Positions 2,182 through 9,272 of a stretch of DNA of 64,000 nucleotides are shown piece by piece. The translations under genes and the position numbers were made by a program. The stretch is taken from the NCBI GenBank assembly GCA_018696595.1, contig JABHQW010000003.1:241907-305906 (forward strand), read 5' to 3'. Within the stretch, counting starts at the first letter, position 1. Every line of letters starts with the position of its first letter. This DNA is from Candidatus Woesearchaeota archaeon (GTDB lineage: Archaea > Nanobdellota > Nanobdellia > Woesearchaeales > GW2011-AR9). The notes under the pieces are model-generated. The model ran no database searches, was not told where the DNA came from, and saw nothing but the letters and a program-made list of their open reading frames with translations.

Positions 2182-2694
2182 ATGAATGAAAACGATTTAT
2201 TAGATGTTGTAAATGAAACAGATGAAGTAATTGGACAAGATTATAAGAACAATAAATTCACTAAAGGGTTTATCTCTAGAAATGCAGTGGTTTTTATTAA
2301 AGATAAAGAGGGCAGATATATTATTGTTAAAAGAAGCCCACTAAAAAGAACTGACCCCAATAAGTTAGATCTTTCTGTTTGTGGAAATGTTAATGCTGGA
2401 GAAGATTATAAACAAGCAGCAATAAGGGAAATGAAAGAAGAAATTGGGATTGAGTGTGATGTTAAATTTCTAAAGAAAATCACTAATGAGATCCCCCACA
2501 AAGACACAATTCTAAAATTCTTCACAGGAATCTTTCTAGGAGAACATCATGGAGAAATTGTTACAAACGAAGAAGTTAAAGAACATCAACGTTGGACTTT
2601 AGAAGAGTTAAAACAAGAGATGGAACAGAACCCAGAACAATTCACCTTCGGTTTTAGAAAAGACTTTGAAGAAGTTAAAGATTTACTTCAATAA
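2182..2694 (+). CDS. Nudix hydrolase
   Basis: Nudix box GNVNAGEDYKQAAIREMKEEIGI (GX5EX7REUXEEXGU). Confidence 0.7.
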   Translation: MNENDLLDVVNETDEVIGQDYKNNKFTKGFISRNAVVFIKDKEGRYIIVKRSPLKRTDPNKLDLSVCGNVNAGEDYKQAAIREMKEEIGIECDVKFLKKITNEIPHKDTILKFFTGIFLGEHHGEIVTNEEVKEHQRWTLEELKQEMEQNPEQFTFGFRKDFEEVKDLLQ

Positions 2695-2743
2695 CGTTTC
2701 TTTCACAGAAAAGAATATAAAATCCAATAGTATTCTATCTCTC

Positions 2744-3130
2744 ATGGCAAAAGATGATGACACATTAGAGAATCTTGTCGGACCAACAATTGTTTTTAAA
2801 GATGGCGTCGAGTTTACTGGAGCAGGAATGAATTGTTTATCATTAAAATACAATTACTCTCACGGACAAAAGAACCCACATTATGAAGATGTTGCCAGTG
2901 TTTTTGTTAATGGAGAACTAAAATGGCAAAACCATAATTATTCTCAAGGAACACCAAAAACAACAGATTCTGTAGAGTTAGTTTTAGCCCCAAGAATAGA
3001 ATATGTTATGAAAATAAGTAAAACATTACGATTTAAAAGACCAAAAGATAAAACAATAAAAACATTCTTGAAAATAGAAGCCAGTCAAGTAGAAAATGTT
3101 TACCAGAATGATGAACAACTTTGGCCATAA
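2744..3130 (+). CDS. Hypothetical protein
   Basis: ORF in track starts 2666 but overlaps the Nudix gene. Internal ATG at 2744 (MAKDDD...) is a more plausible start. No recognisable motif. Confidence 0.35.
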   Translation: MAKDDDTLENLVGPTIVFKDGVEFTGAGMNCLSLKYNYSHGQKNPHYEDVASVFVNGELKWQNHNYSQGTPKTTDSVELVLAPRIEYVMKISKTLRFKRPKDKTIKTFLKIEASQVENVYQNDEQLWP

Positions 3131-3134
3131 AAGT

Positions 3135-3836
3135 TTACTTCAATAACGTTTCTTTCATTTCTTTGATTTCTTGTTCAGTTACAGCAGAACCATTATACTT
3201 TGCTGCCCACAATACAGAATCTAGTAAAGTGGTTTTACCACCACGCTGTTTAGGCATATAATGATTCAACATTCCAAGTTTGTAAGCCACAGCAACTAAT
3301 TCAATAGAACGAACAATTTTTATATTTTTCAACTGATTACTAAAATCGTTCATTTTATCTTTGTTCACTTGAACATCTTTCTTGAAACGGATTTCTAATA
3401 ACTTTTCCATTTCTTTATTATTCTCAATTAGTAAACGTAAAGTTCTTTCATCCATGACAACAGCAGAAGCATTGGTTTGTAAAGCACAAGTTACTGCTTC
3501 CATTTCTCCAGTTTGAATTATGTCCATGTTTTTGTTTTTTATTTTGAAAGAACTGTTAGCCAAATTTTGTAACTGTTCTACTCTACTTTTAGGAACTTTA
3601 TCATAAACTTCTAATGTCCCATCTCTAATTAGTTTCATAACTTGTAATGCTTCAAATTCAAACCGTTTAATTCCTAATGGTCTTTCAACTAATTCTGTTT
3701 TAACACCGGGAGTAATGTAGAATTTTCCACCAAACTTTTCTTTCAGTTTAGGAAGAATCCAAATCAACCGAGACATAACTAGTGTGATGATCGGTCCTGC
3801 GTCGAAGAATAATGCTTTTTCCATTTTAAACCCCAA
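3135..3836 (-). CDS. Hypothetical protein, possible PIN-like nuclease fold
   Basis: N-terminus FFDAGPIITL resembles the first acidic strand of PIN domains. Otherwise unassigned. Confidence 0.35.
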   Translation of the reverse strand: MGFKMEKALFFDAGPIITLVMSRLIWILPKLKEKFGGKFYITPGVKTELVERPLGIKRFEFEALQVMKLIRDGTLEVYDKVPKSRVEQLQNLANSSFKIKNKNMDIIQTGEMEAVTCALQTNASAVVMDERTLRLLIENNKEMEKLLEIRFKKDVQVNKDKMNDFSNQLKNIKIVRSIELVAVAYKLGMLNHYMPKQRGGKTTLLDSVLWAAKYNGSAVTEQEIKEMKETLLK

Positions 3837-4392
3837 ATAGTTTCAGTGCTAATTCTAACCTTTTTTTTGCTGAGACTGAAACGTAATGTGAATCCATCAC
3901 TTTAGTTCTGCCAGCATATTGTTGTAAGTCCCAATTAGATAAACCCATCAATCCCGCTGCTTGTCCTAATGAAAGACCTTTCTGCAATAAAACCGCTCCT
4001 TTTTTAATTCTGGCTGCATCCATTACATCTTGTAAATGTGTTTTTACTGAAGCGTTTGCACTTCTAACAATCTTAAAAAGAGATTTCACACTTTTATTAT
4101 ATCTAGCAAAATTTCCTTGTTGTAAATGATTTCTAGCAAATTCCAGTTCTGCAATTAAATCTTTATAATTTTCTTCTTTCATTTGCCGAACAACTTTGTA
4201 TATTGAATAAATAAGAACAGTTACTGAAATCAAATCAAGATTTTTGTATAAAGCCACATCTTCTATTGAATGGTCGCTTAAATCTTTCAATTGTTCTACA
4301 TCTTGCAGTTCTCTTTGTTTAAGAATTTCAATAGTCTTAGTCAAATCATTAAGAATCTCTTTCTTTACCTCTCTTCTCATACTTGTTAGCAT
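3826..4392 (-). CDS. Hypothetical protein with C-terminal helix-turn-helix
   Basis: Track ORF extends to 4464, but the first 24 codons are the reverse complement of the palindromic intergenic element at 4440-4514. Start at internal Met (MLTSMRREV) is preferred. C-terminus LSLGQAAGLMGLS looks HTH-like. Confidence 0.4.
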   Translation of the reverse strand: MLTSMRREVKKEILNDLTKTIEILKQRELQDVEQLKDLSDHSIEDVALYKNLDLISVTVLIYSIYKVVRQMKEENYKDLIAELEFARNHLQQGNFARYNKSVKSLFKIVRSANASVKTHLQDVMDAARIKKGAVLLQKGLSLGQAAGLMGLSNWDLQQYAGRTKVMDSHYVSVSAKKRLELALKLFGV

Positions 4393-4439
4393 ATTCTTGG
4401 GTTTTATTAAAGTTTTGGAAAGAAGCCTATACCACAATT

Positions 4440-4514
4440 TTAAGAGCAGCGCCAATGGAGGCACATTTTTTGGCTAAAAGACAAAAAATCTCGGGTGCCG
4501 TGCCCTGCTCTTAA
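4440..4514 (+). ncRNA. Structured intergenic element, copy 1 of a three-copy family (conserved core CGCCAATGGAGGCACAT ... GTGCCGTGCC within a 10-bp outer stem TTAAGAGCAG/CTGCTCTTAA)
   Basis: Perfect outer inverted repeat, inner GGCAC/GTGCC stem, apical hairpin ATTTTTTG..CAAAAAAT. Same core at 36454-36557 and 42948-43015 with different outer stems. Strand unknown. Confidence 0.45.
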
Positions 4515-4585
4515 AATGATTTTATAACCCAAGTAAACAATTGACAGACCAACAAATTTATAACCAATAAAATATTACTTTCTTT

Positions 4586-5080
4586 ATGGCTTATGCAGTA
4601 ACCCATATCATTCTAACAATCGTTGTCTTAGATTTATTTAGACATTATGTATTTGGAAAAAGAAGATTTCCGAGATATATGTTAGTGATTGGTGGGATTG
4701 CTGGACTTCTTCCAGACATTGATATTCCTCTTAGTTGGATTTATAATTTATTTACAGGACTCTCAGTTAATTTTCATGGTATGTTTACCCATTCATTAAT
4801 ATTCCCAATAATATTTGCTTTGATAGGAGTTATTTTCCATTTCAAAAAAGGGAATCATAAATGGGCAAAGATATTTTACATTATTGCTTTTGGATTGTTT
4901 TTCCATTCAATATTAGATTGTGCTTTTGGTGGTTACAAAACTTTCTTCTGGCCGTTCTACTTCATAAACTTCTGTCCACAATGGGGAATTGCTAGTTATA
5001 TGCAAAGTGTAGATGCAATTATATTAGTTGTTTGGTTGCTACATGAAGAAATACATAATAAGATCAAGGATTATATTTGA
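4586..5080 (+). CDS. Membrane-bound metal-dependent hydrolase (YdjM/DUF457-like)
   Basis: Small polytopic membrane protein with LLPDIDIPLSW and multiple His. Resembles the LexA-regulated YdjM family. Confidence 0.45.
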   Translation: MAYAVTHIILTIVVLDLFRHYVFGKRRFPRYMLVIGGIAGLLPDIDIPLSWIYNLFTGLSVNFHGMFTHSLIFPIIFALIGVIFHFKKGNHKWAKIFYIIAFGLFFHSILDCAFGGYKTFFWPFYFINFCPQWGIASYMQSVDAIILVVWLLHEEIHNKIKDYI

Positions 5081-6132
5081 AAATGAAAAAAGAGACAATT
5101 CCCGGAACTATCAGGATTCAAGTGAAAGGATTAATTCCTTATCAGAAAACTAAAACCTCTTGGAAGAAATGTTCTCAAAAGTTTCCCAAAGTAAAAGAGA
5201 TTGTTAAATTGTTTAAAGCACACAAAAACTTCAACATCCTAGTTGATAAAGTTAATCCAAGATTCCTTAAAGGACAATTGCTAAAAGGAAAAATTCAAGG
5301 TGCAAGAATTAACGTTCTTCCAGATGGAACAAAAATAGATAAAGCTTATTCTTTATTCGCAGACCATTTAACAGTTCATGATCAAAAGTCAAATGAACAT
5401 TGGGATGTTTTATATCAGAATCCTGGTGGAACGTGGGCTTATTGTTATTCTTTAGAAAAAAAAGCGAAAAACACTATTAAAAAATATAATAAAGTTCATC
5501 AATTTGATAAAGTTTATTCTAACTTAAACAAAAACGTTTCTTCAGCACTAAGAAATAAGAAAGATAACCTTGCCTTACCTATGTATACTTTATTGAAAAC
5601 AAGAATGAGAATTGGTAATGAAATTTATTATAAGTTACACAATCATAAAGGATTAACAACATTAAAGAAAAAAAATATTAAAATAAAAGGTAACAAAATT
5701 GAATTTCAATATGTGGGAAAAGATGGAGTCCCACAAGATGTTGTTAAAGAATTTCCTGTTTCTTACATTAAACGAATGAAAGAACATCTTAAAAAGATTA
5801 AAAGAGAAGATTTTGTTTTTGTTTCTAATTCCGGACACCCATTACCAGAGAAGGAATTCAAATTAGCTTTCAAGAGGTACTGCGGTAAAGAATTCTATCC
5901 CCATATAGTAAGATCTCATTATGCTACAAGTAAAGTTAAAAATTTCATTAAAGGTAAAAGAAAACTCAACAAAAAGGAAGTAAATAAGTTATATTTAGAA
6001 ATTGCTAGTTCTTTAGGGCATAAAAAGTTCTCAAAAAAAGATAATGTTTGGAAAGAAAGTTTCTCTGTTACTGTGGGACATTATATTGAGCCAAAGTTGG
6101 TTGAGAAGGTTAAAAAAATGGTTAGTAAATAA
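5077..6132 (+). CDS. DNA topoisomerase IB (eukaryote/poxvirus type)
   Basis: VGKDGV matches FLGKDS of human Topo I. RSHYATSKV matches KVFRTYNAS. GHYIEPKL matches the active-site SKLNYLDPRI. Start overlaps previous gene (ATGA). Confidence 0.7.
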   Translation: MKMKKETIPGTIRIQVKGLIPYQKTKTSWKKCSQKFPKVKEIVKLFKAHKNFNILVDKVNPRFLKGQLLKGKIQGARINVLPDGTKIDKAYSLFADHLTVHDQKSNEHWDVLYQNPGGTWAYCYSLEKKAKNTIKKYNKVHQFDKVYSNLNKNVSSALRNKKDNLALPMYTLLKTRMRIGNEIYYKLHNHKGLTTLKKKNIKIKGNKIEFQYVGKDGVPQDVVKEFPVSYIKRMKEHLKKIKREDFVFVSNSGHPLPEKEFKLAFKRYCGKEFYPHIVRSHYATSKVKNFIKGKRKLNKKEVNKLYLEIASSLGHKKFSKKDNVWKESFSVTVGHYIEPKLVEKVKKMVSK

Positions 6133-6317
6133 ATTCTAACTACAATTAAGTGACAACACCCAAAACATTTATAAACTGAACACGAAGAAATAGAGTTATA
6201 ACAGATTATTTTACAGAATATGACCAAAAATGGCACCAGAGAATATCTTCTCTTCATGTTAATGCATTACGTACTGCAGAATCAACTGCTAAAGCATCAA
6301 AGAAATTTAAAAAAATT

Positions 6318-7682
6318 ATGGTTTCTGCAGAAAGAAAGAGACAACAAGCATTAATAAATTATGATCAAACAACAGCTCTTGATTCCTTAGAATCTAAATT
6401 AAGAGCAATAGATATACAAGAAGATTTAGATACAATGGATTTGTCAAGAGAAATAACTTTAGAAGTTGTGCAAATGGAGTTAAGAACACATTTACGACAA
6501 TCATTGACAGAGTTAACTGATATTGGTTGGAAAATGTACCAGGATGATTTAAAACAATTTAATGATGAAGGACAATTAATATTTTATTTCAAGTTAGCAA
6601 ATGAATTATTTATGATCAGTGAATTACATGAAATGGAATTTTCTTATCGTACTGATGAACCATTATTATCAGATTGTAATGTATTAAAAGAAAGATTATT
6701 TCCAAGAGGACCACCTAAAGGAAGTATTGATAGCTTTTTTGAGAGCAGACAAGATGATGTAAAAACTTTGGTCCAAGAATTACAAAGAAATAATTATATC
6801 ACTAAGAAAGCAGCAAGAAAATTAACTCAATTATTAAACCCACTTAGTGCTGAATTAGAAAGAAGAGAAGTGGCTAATATTACTTCAGCGGTAAGCGAAC
6901 TTTTTGATAGTATTTATAGTACAATAGAAACACATACAAAACCAGTACCAAAAAAAAAGACAGTTATTGAAGAAAAAGTTGCAACAGGACCAACTCCAGA
7001 ACAAATTGCTGAAAGTCAAGATGTTTTAATTAATTTCTTTGATTTAAGAGAAGAAATTGCTGACAATTATGCTAACCAATTATCTCAATCAGATATAATT
7101 CATATGTATAGTCAACTAGCCAACACAATTGGTGACGAACCAGCAATAGCAGTTATTAGAGATAATCCAGAAATTTTAACATATGTACAAACTAATCAAT
7201 GGAGTAAATATGTCAGAGCCTTAAGTGTTATCTGTAACGGAACCGGGCAAGAAACAATTGAAAGTTATCCCACAAATGAATATTCCTCTTTAGAAAGAGC
7301 TTTAGAATTAAAACAAAAAGTTAATTCGTTTGCTAATAGTAAAGATACAGCAGAAATAACTGAAGAATTAACAAAACCAGAATTTGAATTATACAGATAT
7401 ACCTTTCTTCATACAGGAAATGAACATGTAAATAGAAGAAGAGAAAGTTTAATTAAAAAAGGAAAAGTAACAGTTACAGACCGAGATCATTGGAATGGAG
7501 GAAGTTCTGGTGCAAGAGGAAATAACATCATCATGAAATTAGATTATGAAATCGGGATTTTGTTTTCAGACTTGGGCTTACCAGAACCTGATTGTAATCC
7601 TAATTTTGGTCAAAGAACATTATCTATTTCTCCACAAGACCAAGCTAACCTAGCAGAAGTTGCTGCTTTATATTGTAAATAA
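6318..7682 (+). CDS. Hypothetical protein (454 aa)
   Basis: Long ORF with coding-like composition, mostly helical N-terminus, no recognisable motif. Confidence 0.45.
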   Translation: MVSAERKRQQALINYDQTTALDSLESKLRAIDIQEDLDTMDLSREITLEVVQMELRTHLRQSLTELTDIGWKMYQDDLKQFNDEGQLIFYFKLANELFMISELHEMEFSYRTDEPLLSDCNVLKERLFPRGPPKGSIDSFFESRQDDVKTLVQELQRNNYITKKAARKLTQLLNPLSAELERREVANITSAVSELFDSIYSTIETHTKPVPKKKTVIEEKVATGPTPEQIAESQDVLINFFDLREEIADNYANQLSQSDIIHMYSQLANTIGDEPAIAVIRDNPEILTYVQTNQWSKYVRALSVICNGTGQETIESYPTNEYSSLERALELKQKVNSFANSKDTAEITEELTKPEFELYRYTFLHTGNEHVNRRRESLIKKGKVTVTDRDHWNGGSSGARGNNIIMKLDYEIGILFSDLGLPEPDCNPNFGQRTLSISPQDQANLAEVAALYCK

Positions 7683-7683
7683 A

Positions 7684-7821
7684 TGGGGCCGCGAAGACTT
7701 TCAAATTCTCTCTTGCGAAAGAATTTTTTGAATTCCAGGATTAATTATTAATCTCTCCGATTCCACGACTTCTGGTTTTGATCCCCAGCCGTGGGTGCTA
7801 ACCAAGTTACACTACGGCCCC
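7684..7821 (-). tRNA. tRNA-Pro(GGG)-like gene with introns in the anticodon loop and T-loop region
   Basis: Minus strand reads GGGGCCG-TA-GTGT AACTTGGTTA GCAC-C-CACGG CTGGGG[A..intron..]TCGTG-GAAT-CGGAG[...]AGT CTTCG-CGGCCCC-A. 7-bp acceptor, good D-arm with GG, anticodon stem restored after ~13-nt intron, T-stem CGGAG/CTTCG. T-loop atypical and interrupted by a ~55-nt insert ending TTTGAAAGT, shared with the other two tRNAs. Confidence 0.45.
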
Positions 7822-7868
7822 GATGAAGTCTAAGTAAAGAATCAATATATAAAATTTACTATAAGAAA

Positions 7869-8282
7869 CTAAAATCTACTTCTCTGATGAAAATCTTCTT
7901 TTCCCACCAATCCATCTTCTAAAAGAAACTTTTGAGAACCGATATACAAACCATCATGACGTAAATCTAAATTAGCCACTTTAACAAGTCGTTGATATTC
8001 CCCATCAACAATATTATCCACCCTGGCTTCTCGAATAGAATCAACAAACTCAAAAAAATCATTTCCTCCTGAAGAAAAAAGATATTTCCGTTCTGCAGTT
8101 TCAATTTCTTTTAACAAATCACCATCAATATCTGGGTTTTGTTTAAGAAAACCAGCTTTATTATCAATAATCGCATAAGCACAATAATCCATTTTAACTT
8201 GACTTAAAACAGTTTCATCAAAAAAAGATAATTCTGTCATAAAGCGAAGTACTTCTGATCTCATTTGGTTCATGATAGTCAT
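7869..8282 (-). CDS. Hypothetical protein
   Basis: 137-aa ORF, no motif recognised. Confidence 0.4.
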   Translation of the reverse strand: MTIMNQMRSEVLRFMTELSFFDETVLSQVKMDYCAYAIIDNKAGFLKQNPDIDGDLLKEIETAERKYLFSSGGNDFFEFVDSIREARVDNIVDGEYQRLVKVANLDLRHDGLYIGSQKFLLEDGLVGKEDFHQRSRF

Positions 8283-8313
8283 AAATCTGTTTGGAAAAGG
8301 TTAGTTTATAAAA

Positions 8314-8772
8314 TTAATGCTTATAAATTTCATTAGTAAAGAAGTTCTTAATTATTTTCACACAAGGTGGAAATACTTTCTCTGGCAATTCTGAAAAGGA
8401 AAACCAACGCCACTCGACTATTTCATCTGGTTCCATTGTTTTAACATCTCCTTCAAAGTCTGTACAAATAAATCCGTTAGTTACAAAATGGTTGTCATGT
8501 ACAATTTCATCCGTCACACTAATTAGTTTTAAATTATTAGCTTTCAGACTAGTTTCTTCTTCTAACTCCCTCATAGCACTCTCTTTAATTGTTTGATGCC
8601 AATCAACTTTACCACCTGGCATAGTCCAAGTTCCTTCTCCATGTAATTCAGAACTAGCTTTCTCTGCATCAGAATGTCTTAAACCTAAAAGAACCTTATG
8701 ATTTCTAACAACCATAACTCCTACTCCTGCTCTTGGATATTTTGTCATAATAACAACAAGAAACAAATACAT
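8314..8772 (-). CDS. Nudix hydrolase
   Basis: Nudix box GGKVDWHQTIKESAMRELEEETSL. Confidence 0.7.
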   Translation of the reverse strand: MYLFLVVIMTKYPRAGVGVMVVRNHKVLLGLRHSDAEKASSELHGEGTWTMPGGKVDWHQTIKESAMRELEEETSLKANNLKLISVTDEIVHDNHFVTNGFICTDFEGDVKTMEPDEIVEWRWFSFSELPEKVFPPCVKIIKNFFTNEIYKH

Positions 8773-8801
8773 TTAAAAACTTTATGAATAACATTTAATA
8801 G

Positions 8802-9272
8802 ATGAGAGAAAAACCTAAAGAGCGGTTAACCACCTGGTTATTCCTATTTGCATACTTAACTACTTTAGCAATAACTTTCTTAGACTTTTTCAAACTTAAA
8901 ATATTAACATTTAATTACGAAATCATTTTTGGGATCCTTTTAGCAGGAGGAATAGCCTTAAGACTTCTTTGTAGAATGTGGTTAAGAAGGTTTTTTAGTA
9001 TCCATATTAAGATTAAAAAAGACCATGAAATTGTTAGAAAAGGATTATATAAATATGTTAGACATCCGATGTATACTTCTACACTTTTAATTTTCTTAGG
9101 TTTTGCAGGAATATTTTCTTCAATCTTAGGAATAATTGCAACTCTAGTTTTAATACTACCAGTAACTTTGTTAAGAATTAAACGAGAAGAATATTATTTG
9201 AAACAGAAAACAAAAGAACGTTATGAAGATTATATGAGAAATACTAAGAAACTAATCCCTTTTATTTATTAA
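8802..9272 (+). CDS. Isoprenylcysteine carboxyl methyltransferase / phospholipid methyltransferase family membrane protein
   Basis: TM protein with VRKGLYKYVRHPMYTSTLLIFLG, the ICMT/PEMT signature (RHPxY). Confidence 0.6.
   Translation: MREKPKERLTTWLFLFAYLTTLAITFLDFFKLKILTFNYEIIFGILLAGGIALRLLCRMWLRRFFSIHIKIKKDHEIVRKGLYKYVRHPMYTSTLLIFLGFAGIFSSILGIIATLVLILPVTLLRIKREEYYLKQKTKERYEDYMRNTKKLIPFIY

Follow-up and report, generated by a model that had tools for sequence, protein, structure and literature searches.

The question raised by this locus is which kind of DNA-breaking enzyme is encoded by a type IB topoisomerase (TopIB) gene in the chromosome of a DPANN archaeon, and how the gene came to be there. 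Reviews of archaeal topoisomerases place type IB enzymes only in Thaumarchaeota and their relatives and, more recently, in some Asgard archaea, and in them short TopIBs count as a bacterial and viral form (PMC8185306, PMC4508532, PMC4824112, PMC8748870). Our literature search found no paper linking TopIB with DPANN. The gene lies in the window, that is, the whole stretch of 64,000 nucleotides that was analysed, and its host is a marine Woesearchaeota-type DPANN archaeon with a genome of 1.19 Mb. A preliminary description had regarded it as a eukaryote- or poxvirus-type enzyme, of a kind essentially confined among archaea to Thaumarchaeota and a few related lineages, and possibly acquired horizontally. 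Based on the results below, we consider it, with a probability of about 85%, to be an active TopIB swivelase, which is a dispensable chromosomal accessory and has descended vertically within DPANN with frequent loss.

The open frame first described at 5077..6132 on the plus strand does exist and contains no internal stops. The topIB gene itself occupies 5083..6132 (+), with 349 codons and a TAA stop, and encodes a compact DPANN-type topoisomerase IB of 349 aa. Its start is the ATG at 5083, which is conserved in the closest relatives (MKKE...). The TTG at 5077 was rejected as a start, being a mechanical ORF start where the relatives keep ATG 5083. Homologues with 77-90% identity are 348-349 aa long. 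The gene is present as a single copy in the whole genome (Pfam PF01028 search), and its junctions on both sides are bridged by exact metagenome contigs; no RNA run was listed for it. The upstream neighbour is a YdjM-family membrane protein gene (4586..5080, +; Pfam PF04307, 62.7 bits). Its stop codon TGA (5078-5080) is followed by AA and then by the topIB ATG at 5083, so that the junction reads TGA-AA-ATG (5078..5085, +). The translational coupling by ATGA that had been proposed here was a misreading, because the two genes do not overlap and the ATGA at 5083-5086 is out of frame with the YdjM-like gene. In the two closest loci, L027 and L028 (the latter from G420, shown to be of the same genus as the window), TAA is followed by a 25-nt spacer and then by the topIB ATG, and the alignment indicates that the window junction was left by a lineage-specific 25-nt deletion relative to these relatives. 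The YdjM-topIB adjacency was kept only in L027 and L028, the two closest loci covering the upstream side, and was absent in 20 other topIB loci. The membrane gene, earlier taken for an odd coupled partner, is a neighbour of topIB with no functional tie to it.

The surroundings of topIB are ordinary chromosomal genes, encoding Rpb7-like, M50 peptidase, NUDIX, ICMT-like and radical SAM proteins. The GC content was 0.295 in the bin 4001-6000 as compared to 0.28-0.36 across the window, with no deviation at topIB, and no tRNA or Rfam matches were found within the window. The direct downstream flank is variable, and the window carries there a three-gene insert without counterpart in close relatives. 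The same waters contain, elsewhere, another copy of orf454, which is roughly 93% identical and more abundant. At 2 kb upstream of topIB, a one-gene ORF is enclosed by a 30-nt direct repeat.

Our results demonstrated that the window gene is a genuine type IB topoisomerase, not a tyrosine recombinase, as had been suggested with the proviso that a profile search might assign it to the recombinases. The Pfam family PF01028 (Topoisom_I) matched residues 129-321 (in a 351-aa numbering) with 54.1 bits (cut-off 23.7, E 1.8e-14), and PF00589 (Phage_integrase) reached 22.2 bits, below its cut-off of 27.1; no NCBIfam model matched the protein. The profile of the compact family, searched against the PDB, scored 63 bits with 6z01 (E 1.8e-16), 51 with 2f4q, 45 with 2h7f and 43 with 1a41. 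The AlphaFold (AF2) model of the window protein had a pLDDT of 94.4. Foldseek ranks 1-22 with this model were all TopIB, with E values down to 1e-12, and VIA-align of the whole model gave Z 17-22 over 195-271 residues for TopIB structures (16-22 counting every full-length one) and Z 10-14.6 for tyrosine recombinases, so that every TopIB structure outscored any recombinase in both comparisons. The alignments with CsTOP1 of Caldiarchaeum subterraneum (6z01, Z 19.3) and with the Deinococcus radiodurans enzyme (3m4a, Z 18.8) start at residues 123 and 130, while those with human TOP1 (Z 22.0) and variola TopIB (2h7f, Z 18.2) cover model residues 77-349, thus part of the cap, and 35-349, respectively.

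The three motifs highlighted in the preliminary description are all present on the plus strand and include three of the catalytic residues (Lys, second Arg and Tyr): VGKDG (residues 211-215 in the 349-aa numbering used hereafter, nt 5713-5727), RSHYATS (277-283, nt 5911-5931) and GHYIEPKL (332-339, nt 6076-6099). The first catalytic Arg is Arg176 in MRIGNE (5608..5610, +), the catalytic Lys is Lys213 in VGKDG (5719..5721, +), the second Arg belongs to His274-x-x-Arg277 in PHIVR (5902..5913, +), and the catalytic His is His313 in LGHKK (6019..6021, +). The predicted nucleophile is Tyr334 (6082..6084, +) in the motif T-x-x-H-Y-I-x-P, of which T330, Y334 and P337 are invariant. It was assigned from this motif and its C-terminal position rather than from a residue-level structural alignment; the structural alignments reach the C-terminus of the window model (residue 347-349), past residue 723 of human TOP1. 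Four of the five catalytic residues, Arg176, Lys213, Arg277 and His313, align residue for residue with the CsTOP1 tetrad, which is numbered Arg269, Lys306, Arg367 and His410 (PMC8748870). All five are invariant across 38 family members that are 41-90% identical, among 41 invariant columns in all. The conservation of His274 is at least 90%; at the aligned position, three residues ahead of the second Arg, CsTOP1 has a Lys. This conservation and the predicted structure suggest that the window TopIB is probably catalytically active.

The H274-x-x-R277 pair resembles the box II motif of tyrosine recombinases (Xer, Cre, lambda Int), which share with the window protein the catalytic-domain fold and the order R...H-x-x-R...H...Y, including the His corresponding to His274. 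Together with the weak Phage_integrase match, the direct repeat around the upstream ORF and the variable downstream flank, it could indicate a site-specific breaking-joining enzyme, such as a recombinase, a resolvase or the integrase of a mobile cassette, instead of a general relaxase. The TopIB of poxviruses is sequence-specific and can resolve Holliday junctions in vitro, which also counts for such a role. We consider this very unlikely, since Topoisom_I scores 2.4 times as high as Phage_integrase, which stays below its cut-off, the beta-hairpin Lys (K213 of VGKDG) is placed as in TopIB, clamps of TopIB type match the whole model at Z 17-22, and no repeat or cassette is linked to topIB in 20 other loci. 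The tyrosine recombinases lack both the Lys hairpin of TopIB type and the cap, elements of which are included in the clamp alignments.

The N-terminal cap module (residues 1-122; 5083..5448, +) is composed, according to DSSP of the models, of a small three-stranded sheet, two helices and then a beta-sheet domain, and it is followed by the catalytic domain (residues 123-349; 5449..6129, +), delimited by Pfam Topoisom_I and VIA-align. Residues 1-126 had no Pfam match at E<=1, and the whole protein matched no Pfam family at E<=0.1 except Topoisom_I and, weakly, Phage_integrase. The cap sequence is family-specific: outside proteins match the family profile only from about position 93-131 on. Folded alone, the N-terminal module gave a best structural match of Z 3.1, which is not convincing, and its residues 76-126 resemble the N-domain of D. 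radiodurans TopIB weakly (Z 2.9). When the whole model is compared, the alignment begins at residue 35 with variola TopIB and at 63-77 with human TOP1, and part of the cap is included. At the level of sequence, the enlarged N-terminal module, about 125 aa long, is unique to the compact family. Between His313 and Tyr334, which are 21 residues apart, the segment 6022..6081 (+) includes in the model a beta-hairpin (strands 314-317 and 322-325; DSSP and sequence spacing) where eukaryotes have the linker.

The short bacterial TopIBs, such as those of D. radiodurans (2F4Q/3M4A) and Sphingobacterium lactis, share with the window protein a similar size (about 300-350 aa), a two-module clamp and the lack of a linker. 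They were the nearest non-family proteins in a library of 1.84 billion proteins, with 67-100 bits, their catalytic domain aligned at Z 17-19, 2f4q gave the 51 bits mentioned above, and the last beta-hairpin of their cap corresponds, at the weak Z of 2.9, to model residues 76-126. The differences lie in the hosts, which are archaeal for the compact family, in an N-terminal module about 45 residues longer, and in the residue at -3 from the second Arg, which is His and not Lys. The bacterial domain Top1B_N_bact (PF21338), which was detected at E<=0.01 in 8 of the 10 nearest non-family proteins (above the cut-off in five), had no Pfam match in the window TopIB. The long TOP1 enzymes, CsTOP1 (6Z01/6Z03) and human TOP1 (1A35/1K4T), have the same catalytic pentad and the Y-x-x-P at the nucleophile. 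Of the solved structures, that of CsTOP1 scored highest with the profile, its catalytic domain being 23% identical, and human TOP1 gave the highest structural Z, with model residues 63-122 of the cap also partly covered. Their coiled-coil linker is missing in the window TopIB, in which the His-Tyr distance is 21 residues versus 67 in CsTOP1 and 91 in human TOP1 (PMC8748870, PMC4824112). Topoisom_I_N had no match, and the window protein has 349 aa versus 539-765. The long TOP1 occurs in eukaryotes, the Bathy-/Aig-/Thaumarchaeota group and some Asgard archaea, whereas the compact family was found in DPANN and not in these archaeal groups. The poxvirus TopIBs (vaccinia and variola, 314 aa; 2H7F, 1A41) are, like the window protein, short two-domain enzymes with an LGH-type His motif, and variola TopIB is 19-20% identical to the window model; the poxviral structures match the family profile at 43-45 bits. 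VirDNA-topo-I_N had no sequence match, yet the variola structure aligns from model residue 35; at its N-terminus the window protein has about 35 further residues that form an additional sheet. His and Tyr are 9 residues apart in the vaccinia enzyme (H265, Y274) versus 21, and the window TopIB, as compared to the poxviral ones, is cellular and chromosomal.

The window TopIB belongs to a separate short family, and with its 349 aa, no linker and no Topoisom_I_N it is not of the long, eukaryote-like type of Thaumarchaeota; its placement relative to eukaryotic, thaumarchaeal and poxviral TopIB was made from profile and structure scores. Members were defined here by a full-length match including the N-terminal module, a family-profile score above 300 bits and a length of about 340-390 aa. 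The family was found in 172 species genomes, predominantly of DPANN, with one nested clade in bins labelled bacterial, and its proteins are mostly annotated as 'hypothetical' in public records. The window TopIB is 41-90% identical to members over 96-100% of its length. In the 1.84-billion-protein library the full-length members lay at 313-503 bits, more than 200 bits above the best other full-length protein (99.6). It is also the most divergent TopIB group in this analysis, with 45-75 bits to Topoisom_I versus 93-130 for bacterial-type neighbours. As the family is found mostly in DPANN, the gene is taxonomically informative, as expected earlier, though pointing to DPANN and not to Thaumarchaeota.

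The compact TopIB occurs in 37 of the 401 genomes of the host phylum (a sample that includes six unpublished genomes, G395, G242, G321, G359, G243 and G332) and in 21 of 41 genomes of the host family. This patchiness could mean a recent horizontal acquisition, a possibility already raised in the preliminary description, with a viral, bacterial, thaumarchaeal or eukaryote-like source. It would also agree with the lack of conserved synteny among topIB loci, with the variable downstream flank, its three-gene insert and the orf454 copy, and with another genome of the class, in which a phage Mu F-like domain is joined to a TopIB of a different kind. Indeed, the absence of topIB from half of the close relatives and its variable neighbourhood also fit a gene that comes and goes. 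The gene tree argues against a recent transfer. In 35 sequences it required 7 label changes, which is the minimum, and followed the GTDB families; the window TopIB fell in a starred clade of 12 sequences, all of its own family, and monophyly of the host family was not rejected (p-AU 0.21). The closest 120 homologues have a uniform architecture of 345-365 aa and DPANN names, and no plausible outside donor is visible, because the other full-length library proteins score 100 bits or less. The GC content at topIB is undeviating. Carriage by viruses, also mentioned before, was not found for the compact family: IMG/VR gave 31 pattern matches, none of them confirmed, and neither INPHARED (tblastn, 50,697 phage records) nor PHROGs contained a copy. 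A recent transfer is thus very unlikely, and the patchy presence together with a tree matching taxonomy fits vertical descent with losses. The window gene is an ordinary chromosomal family member, neither a Thaumarchaeota marker nor viral cargo.

Frequent loss could also mean that the window gene itself is decaying, or is a remnant without catalytic activity, on its way out of the lineage, as half of the family's genomes are without it and the 25-nt deletion has taken away its upstream spacer. This is hardly credible for a gene with an intact frame, all five catalytic residues among the 41 columns invariant in 38 members, a highly confident AF2 model and 49-77% identity to same-family relatives with no sign of relaxed constraint.

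The host genome encodes Topo IA, Topo VI A and B and GyrA beside TopIB. The presence of both Topo VI subunits marks the host as an archaeon, in agreement with the archaeal context assumed at the outset. Topo IA is present in 59 of 60 genomes of the host family, so TopIB is not a replacement for it, and GyrA is present in 371 of the 401 phylum genomes, which makes an association of TopIB with gyrase uninformative. The analysis establishes to which family the protein belongs, that its active site is conserved, its fold and distribution, and a tree in line with taxonomy; the chemistry, the relaxation of both supercoil signs and the cellular role are inferred. Duplex DNA would be clamped between the cap module and, at the C-terminus, the catalytic domain, and Tyr334 would attack one strand to give a 3'-phosphotyrosyl intermediate, assisted by Arg176, Lys213, Arg277 and His313. 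Rotation of the cut strand would then remove supercoils of either sign, with no need for ATP or Mg2+, before the nick is closed again. DNA recognition, or even the reaction, could differ in this family because it is divergent, carries the His at -3 and has an unmatched N-terminal module. TopIB would be a dispensable accessory to the complete core set formed by Topo IA, Topo VI and gyrase, and has probably been passed on vertically within DPANN lineages and often lost.

It is also conceivable, if rather doubtful, that the compact family is a third ancient TopIB lineage, which was already present early in DPANN evolution, passed once into Omnitrophota-like bacteria and does not derive from the bacterial, viral or eukaryote-like branches. 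The features cited for this are its own enlarged cap, the recombinase-style H-x-x-R and the hairpin in place of the linker. If true, such a lineage would bear on the divergence of TopIB and tyrosine recombinases and would end the view of archaeal TopIB as a hallmark of Thaumarchaeota and their kin. The compact TopIB is a small enzyme, probably easily expressed, and its unusual cap and active-site surroundings may serve for mechanistic study. It is a fourth topoisomerase type in genomes of about 1 Mb, and the occurrence of a short conserved TopIB in at least 172 species genomes, mostly of DPANN, changes the picture of archaeal TopIB.

The protein encoded by topIB was identified as a type IB topoisomerase by both its sequence and its predicted structure. 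The Pfam family Topoisom_I matched it with 54.1 bits (cut-off 23.7), and a single-protein search against solved structures recovered 6z01, the long archaeal TOP1 of Caldiarchaeum subterraneum (CsTOP1), at 2e-7, the Deinococcus radiodurans enzyme 2f4q at 3.8e-7, and the variola and vaccinia enzymes at about 1e-5. A profile built from 38 family members raised these scores to 63 bits for 6z01, 51 for 2f4q, and 45 and 43 for variola and vaccinia. R176, K213, R277, H313 and Y334 were invariant in the 38-member alignment, and the first four align in HMMER with Arg269, Lys306, Arg367 and His410 of CsTOP1, which form its catalytic tetrad (PMC8748870). The motifs VGKDG, RSHYATS and GHYIEPKL, on which the preliminary description had based its identification, coincide with these invariant catalytic sites. 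The AlphaFold2 model (pLDDT 94.4, pTM 0.85) has the TopIB fold: in a Foldseek search of the PDB, ranks 1-22 were all TopIB, with E-values down to 1e-12, and tyrosine recombinases appeared from 1e-4. With VIA-align the model gave Z 22.0 against human TOP1 (257 residues, rmsd 2.7), 19.3 against CsTOP1, 18.8 against D. radiodurans and 18.2 against variola, and Z 10-14.6 against Xer and Cre. A tyrosine recombinase, the assignment named beforehand as the one that would speak against TopIB, was rejected, because Phage_integrase scored 22.2 bits in the Pfam scan, below its 27.1 cut-off, and recombinase structures ranked and scored below the TopIBs. The identification as TopIB was correct.

The protein has a short TopIB architecture and belongs to a distinct compact branch. 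None of the Pfam N-terminal domains Topoisom_I_N, Top1B_N_bact and VirDNA-topo-I_N matched it. Only 21 residues, including a beta-hairpin (strands 314-317 and 322-325 in the model), lie between H313 and Y334, whereas a helical linker occupies this place in the eukaryotic and thaumarchaeal enzymes. Residues 1-126 modelled alone were confident (pLDDT 90.6), and a structure search with them gave no clear relative (top match Z 3.1); the D. radiodurans N-domain reached Z 2.9 against residues 76-126 only. H274, at position -3 relative to the second catalytic Arg, is nearly invariant across the family and creates a recombinase-like H-x-x-R, whereas CsTOP1 has Lys at this position. When the family profile was searched against 1.84 billion representatives, full-length members scored 313-503 bits and the next full-length protein at most 99.6 bits, and the alignments of non-family proteins began no earlier than profile position about 93-131. 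Closest outside the family are bacterial short TopIBs with Top1B_N_bact plus Topoisom_I, e.g. that of Sphingobacterium lactis; others are TopIB domains within phage-type polyvalent proteins with Mu F, ART-PolyVal or toxin-like domains. With no known N-domain, no linker, an N-terminal module of its own and H274, the enzyme is thus no nearer to eukaryotic TopIBs than to bacterial or viral TopIBs, and the earlier eukaryote-like, thaumarchaeal framing does not hold for this short protein of a DPANN host. Another genome of the same class encodes a different TopIB of 727 aa (L020:6614-8797). Its TopIB core spans residues 130-326 (109.5 bits), and its C-terminal part matches a phage Mu F-like domain below cut-off (24 bits); the protein is similar to polyvalent proteins from phages and conjugative elements, which occur among the family's distant neighbours.

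An open frame covers 5077..6132 on the + strand. The YdjM-family gene upstream (4586..5080; PF04307, 62.7 bits) ends with TGA at 5078-5080, followed by two bases and then by ATG 5083; of the original observation the gene and its motifs stood, and the claimed ATGA overlap is absent. In L027 and L028 (the same-genus genome G420), the two closest relatives whose loci cover the upstream side, the upstream gene ends with TAA and a 25-nt spacer precedes an identical ATG and identical first residues. Because these are shared, topIB starts at ATG 5083 and encodes 349 aa. The tight spacing results from a 25-nt deletion specific to the window's lineage. Exact contigs from independent seawater metagenomes span 4448-6256 and 5738-7545, and therefore the topIB junctions are not assembly artefacts.

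In the close relatives L026, L029 (= L114) and L030, an ICMT-family gene (8802..9272 in the window) directly follows topIB; in the window, about 2.7 kb (6133-8800) with three extra genes lies between them, namely an unknown 454-aa ORF (6318..7682), a 137-aa ORF and a NUDIX gene (8314..8772). The 454-aa ORF had no match in Pfam, NCBIfam or PHROG. In three seawater metagenomes, roughly 93%-identical contigs also cover this ORF and its upstream region (6149-7812), the match beginning abruptly at 6149; their depth was 73-190 vs 3-9 for the exact strain, so a close copy is carried by an organism or virus that is far more abundant in the same waters. Further upstream, a 30-nt direct repeat (2676-2705 and 3128-3157, 93% identical) flanks an unknown 154-aa ORF (2666..3130), its left copy overlapping the end of another NUDIX gene (2182..2694), which looks like a one-gene insertion with target duplication. 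On the - strand (3135-4464), unknown ORFs of 233 and 212 aa overlap by 11 nt; in L027 and L028 both are conserved alongside the YdjM gene that precedes topIB. They gave only weak hints of Cas6 or DUF7073 and of a UPF0175 antitoxin-like C-terminus.

The host is not a thaumarchaeon but a marine member of the DPANN archaea. Besides TopIB, its genome (1.19 Mb, 8 contigs, 97% complete) carries genes for both Topo VI subunits (A and B), Topo IA and gyrase A, and thus for four kinds of topoisomerase (IA, IB, VI and gyrase), the other loci being C6:71299-72501, C3:147710-148911 and C3:258492-259796 besides window 5083-6132. NCBI labels G420 Candidatus Woesearchaeota, and the stretch recurs in seawater metagenomes from 15 studies. 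The best 120 of 667 homologues range from 307 to 406 aa, are nearly always annotated 'hypothetical protein', and come, where named, from Woesearchaeota, Nanoarchaeota, Aenigmarchaeota or 'archaeon', with the exception of one Omnitrophica-labelled MAG. A one-genome-per-species scan found relatives in 172 genomes, with labels including Woesearchaeota, Pacearchaeota, Aenigmatarchaeota, Iainarchaeum and Nanohalarchaeota. Several relatives labelled 'uncultured Methanosarcinales' belong to the host's own GTDB family.

Six loci from Omnitrophota, Ratteibacteria or Planctomycetes bins (L041, L057, L090, L092, L093 and L098) form one starred clade nested among DPANN sequences (SH-aLRT 96, quick tree). 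The three bins tested had sigma-70 and lacked TBP and Topo VI B, and one 42-kb contig of these bins was rich in metabolic functions, unlike DPANN. The single nested clade and the bacterial markers suggest one archaeon-to-bacterium transfer, with mis-binning a possible alternative. The genomes G428 (L081, labelled Campylobacterales) and G429 (L103, labelled Paceibacterota) are archaea with wrong labels, because TBP is present and sigma-70 absent in both; G428 also has Topo VI B.

The preliminary description had also considered a viral or horizontally acquired gene. We found no copy of the compact family in the viral collections IMG/VR, INPHARED and PHROGs, and a careful tree of 35 sequences follows the family labels, which change the minimum number of times; neither framing was upheld. 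In this tree the window falls in a starred clade of 12, all of the host's own family, whose monophyly was not rejected (p-AU 0.21). TopIB is present in 37 of 401 high-quality genomes of the host's GTDB phylum and in 21 of 41 of its family. Gene order is not conserved: in 20 other genomes, none of the window's topIB neighbours lies within 7 kb of the gene, and every further gene in that range is shared by at most four loci. Gyrase and Topo IA occur in almost all of the same genomes; TopIB therefore supplements them and replaces neither.

In the cited reviews and primary articles, archaeal TopIB is assigned to Thaumarchaeota, Aigarchaeota, Bathyarchaeota and later some Asgard, and short TopIB is described from bacteria and viruses only (PMC4508532, PMC4824112, PMC8185306, PMC8748870, bioRxiv 10.1101/858530). 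A full-text literature search for TopIB in DPANN taxa gave no account of the compact family. The topIB gene is an ordinary member of this little-described family, found mainly in DPANN archaea, and on the simplest reading it has long been part of the chromosome in these lineages, dispensable and often lost.
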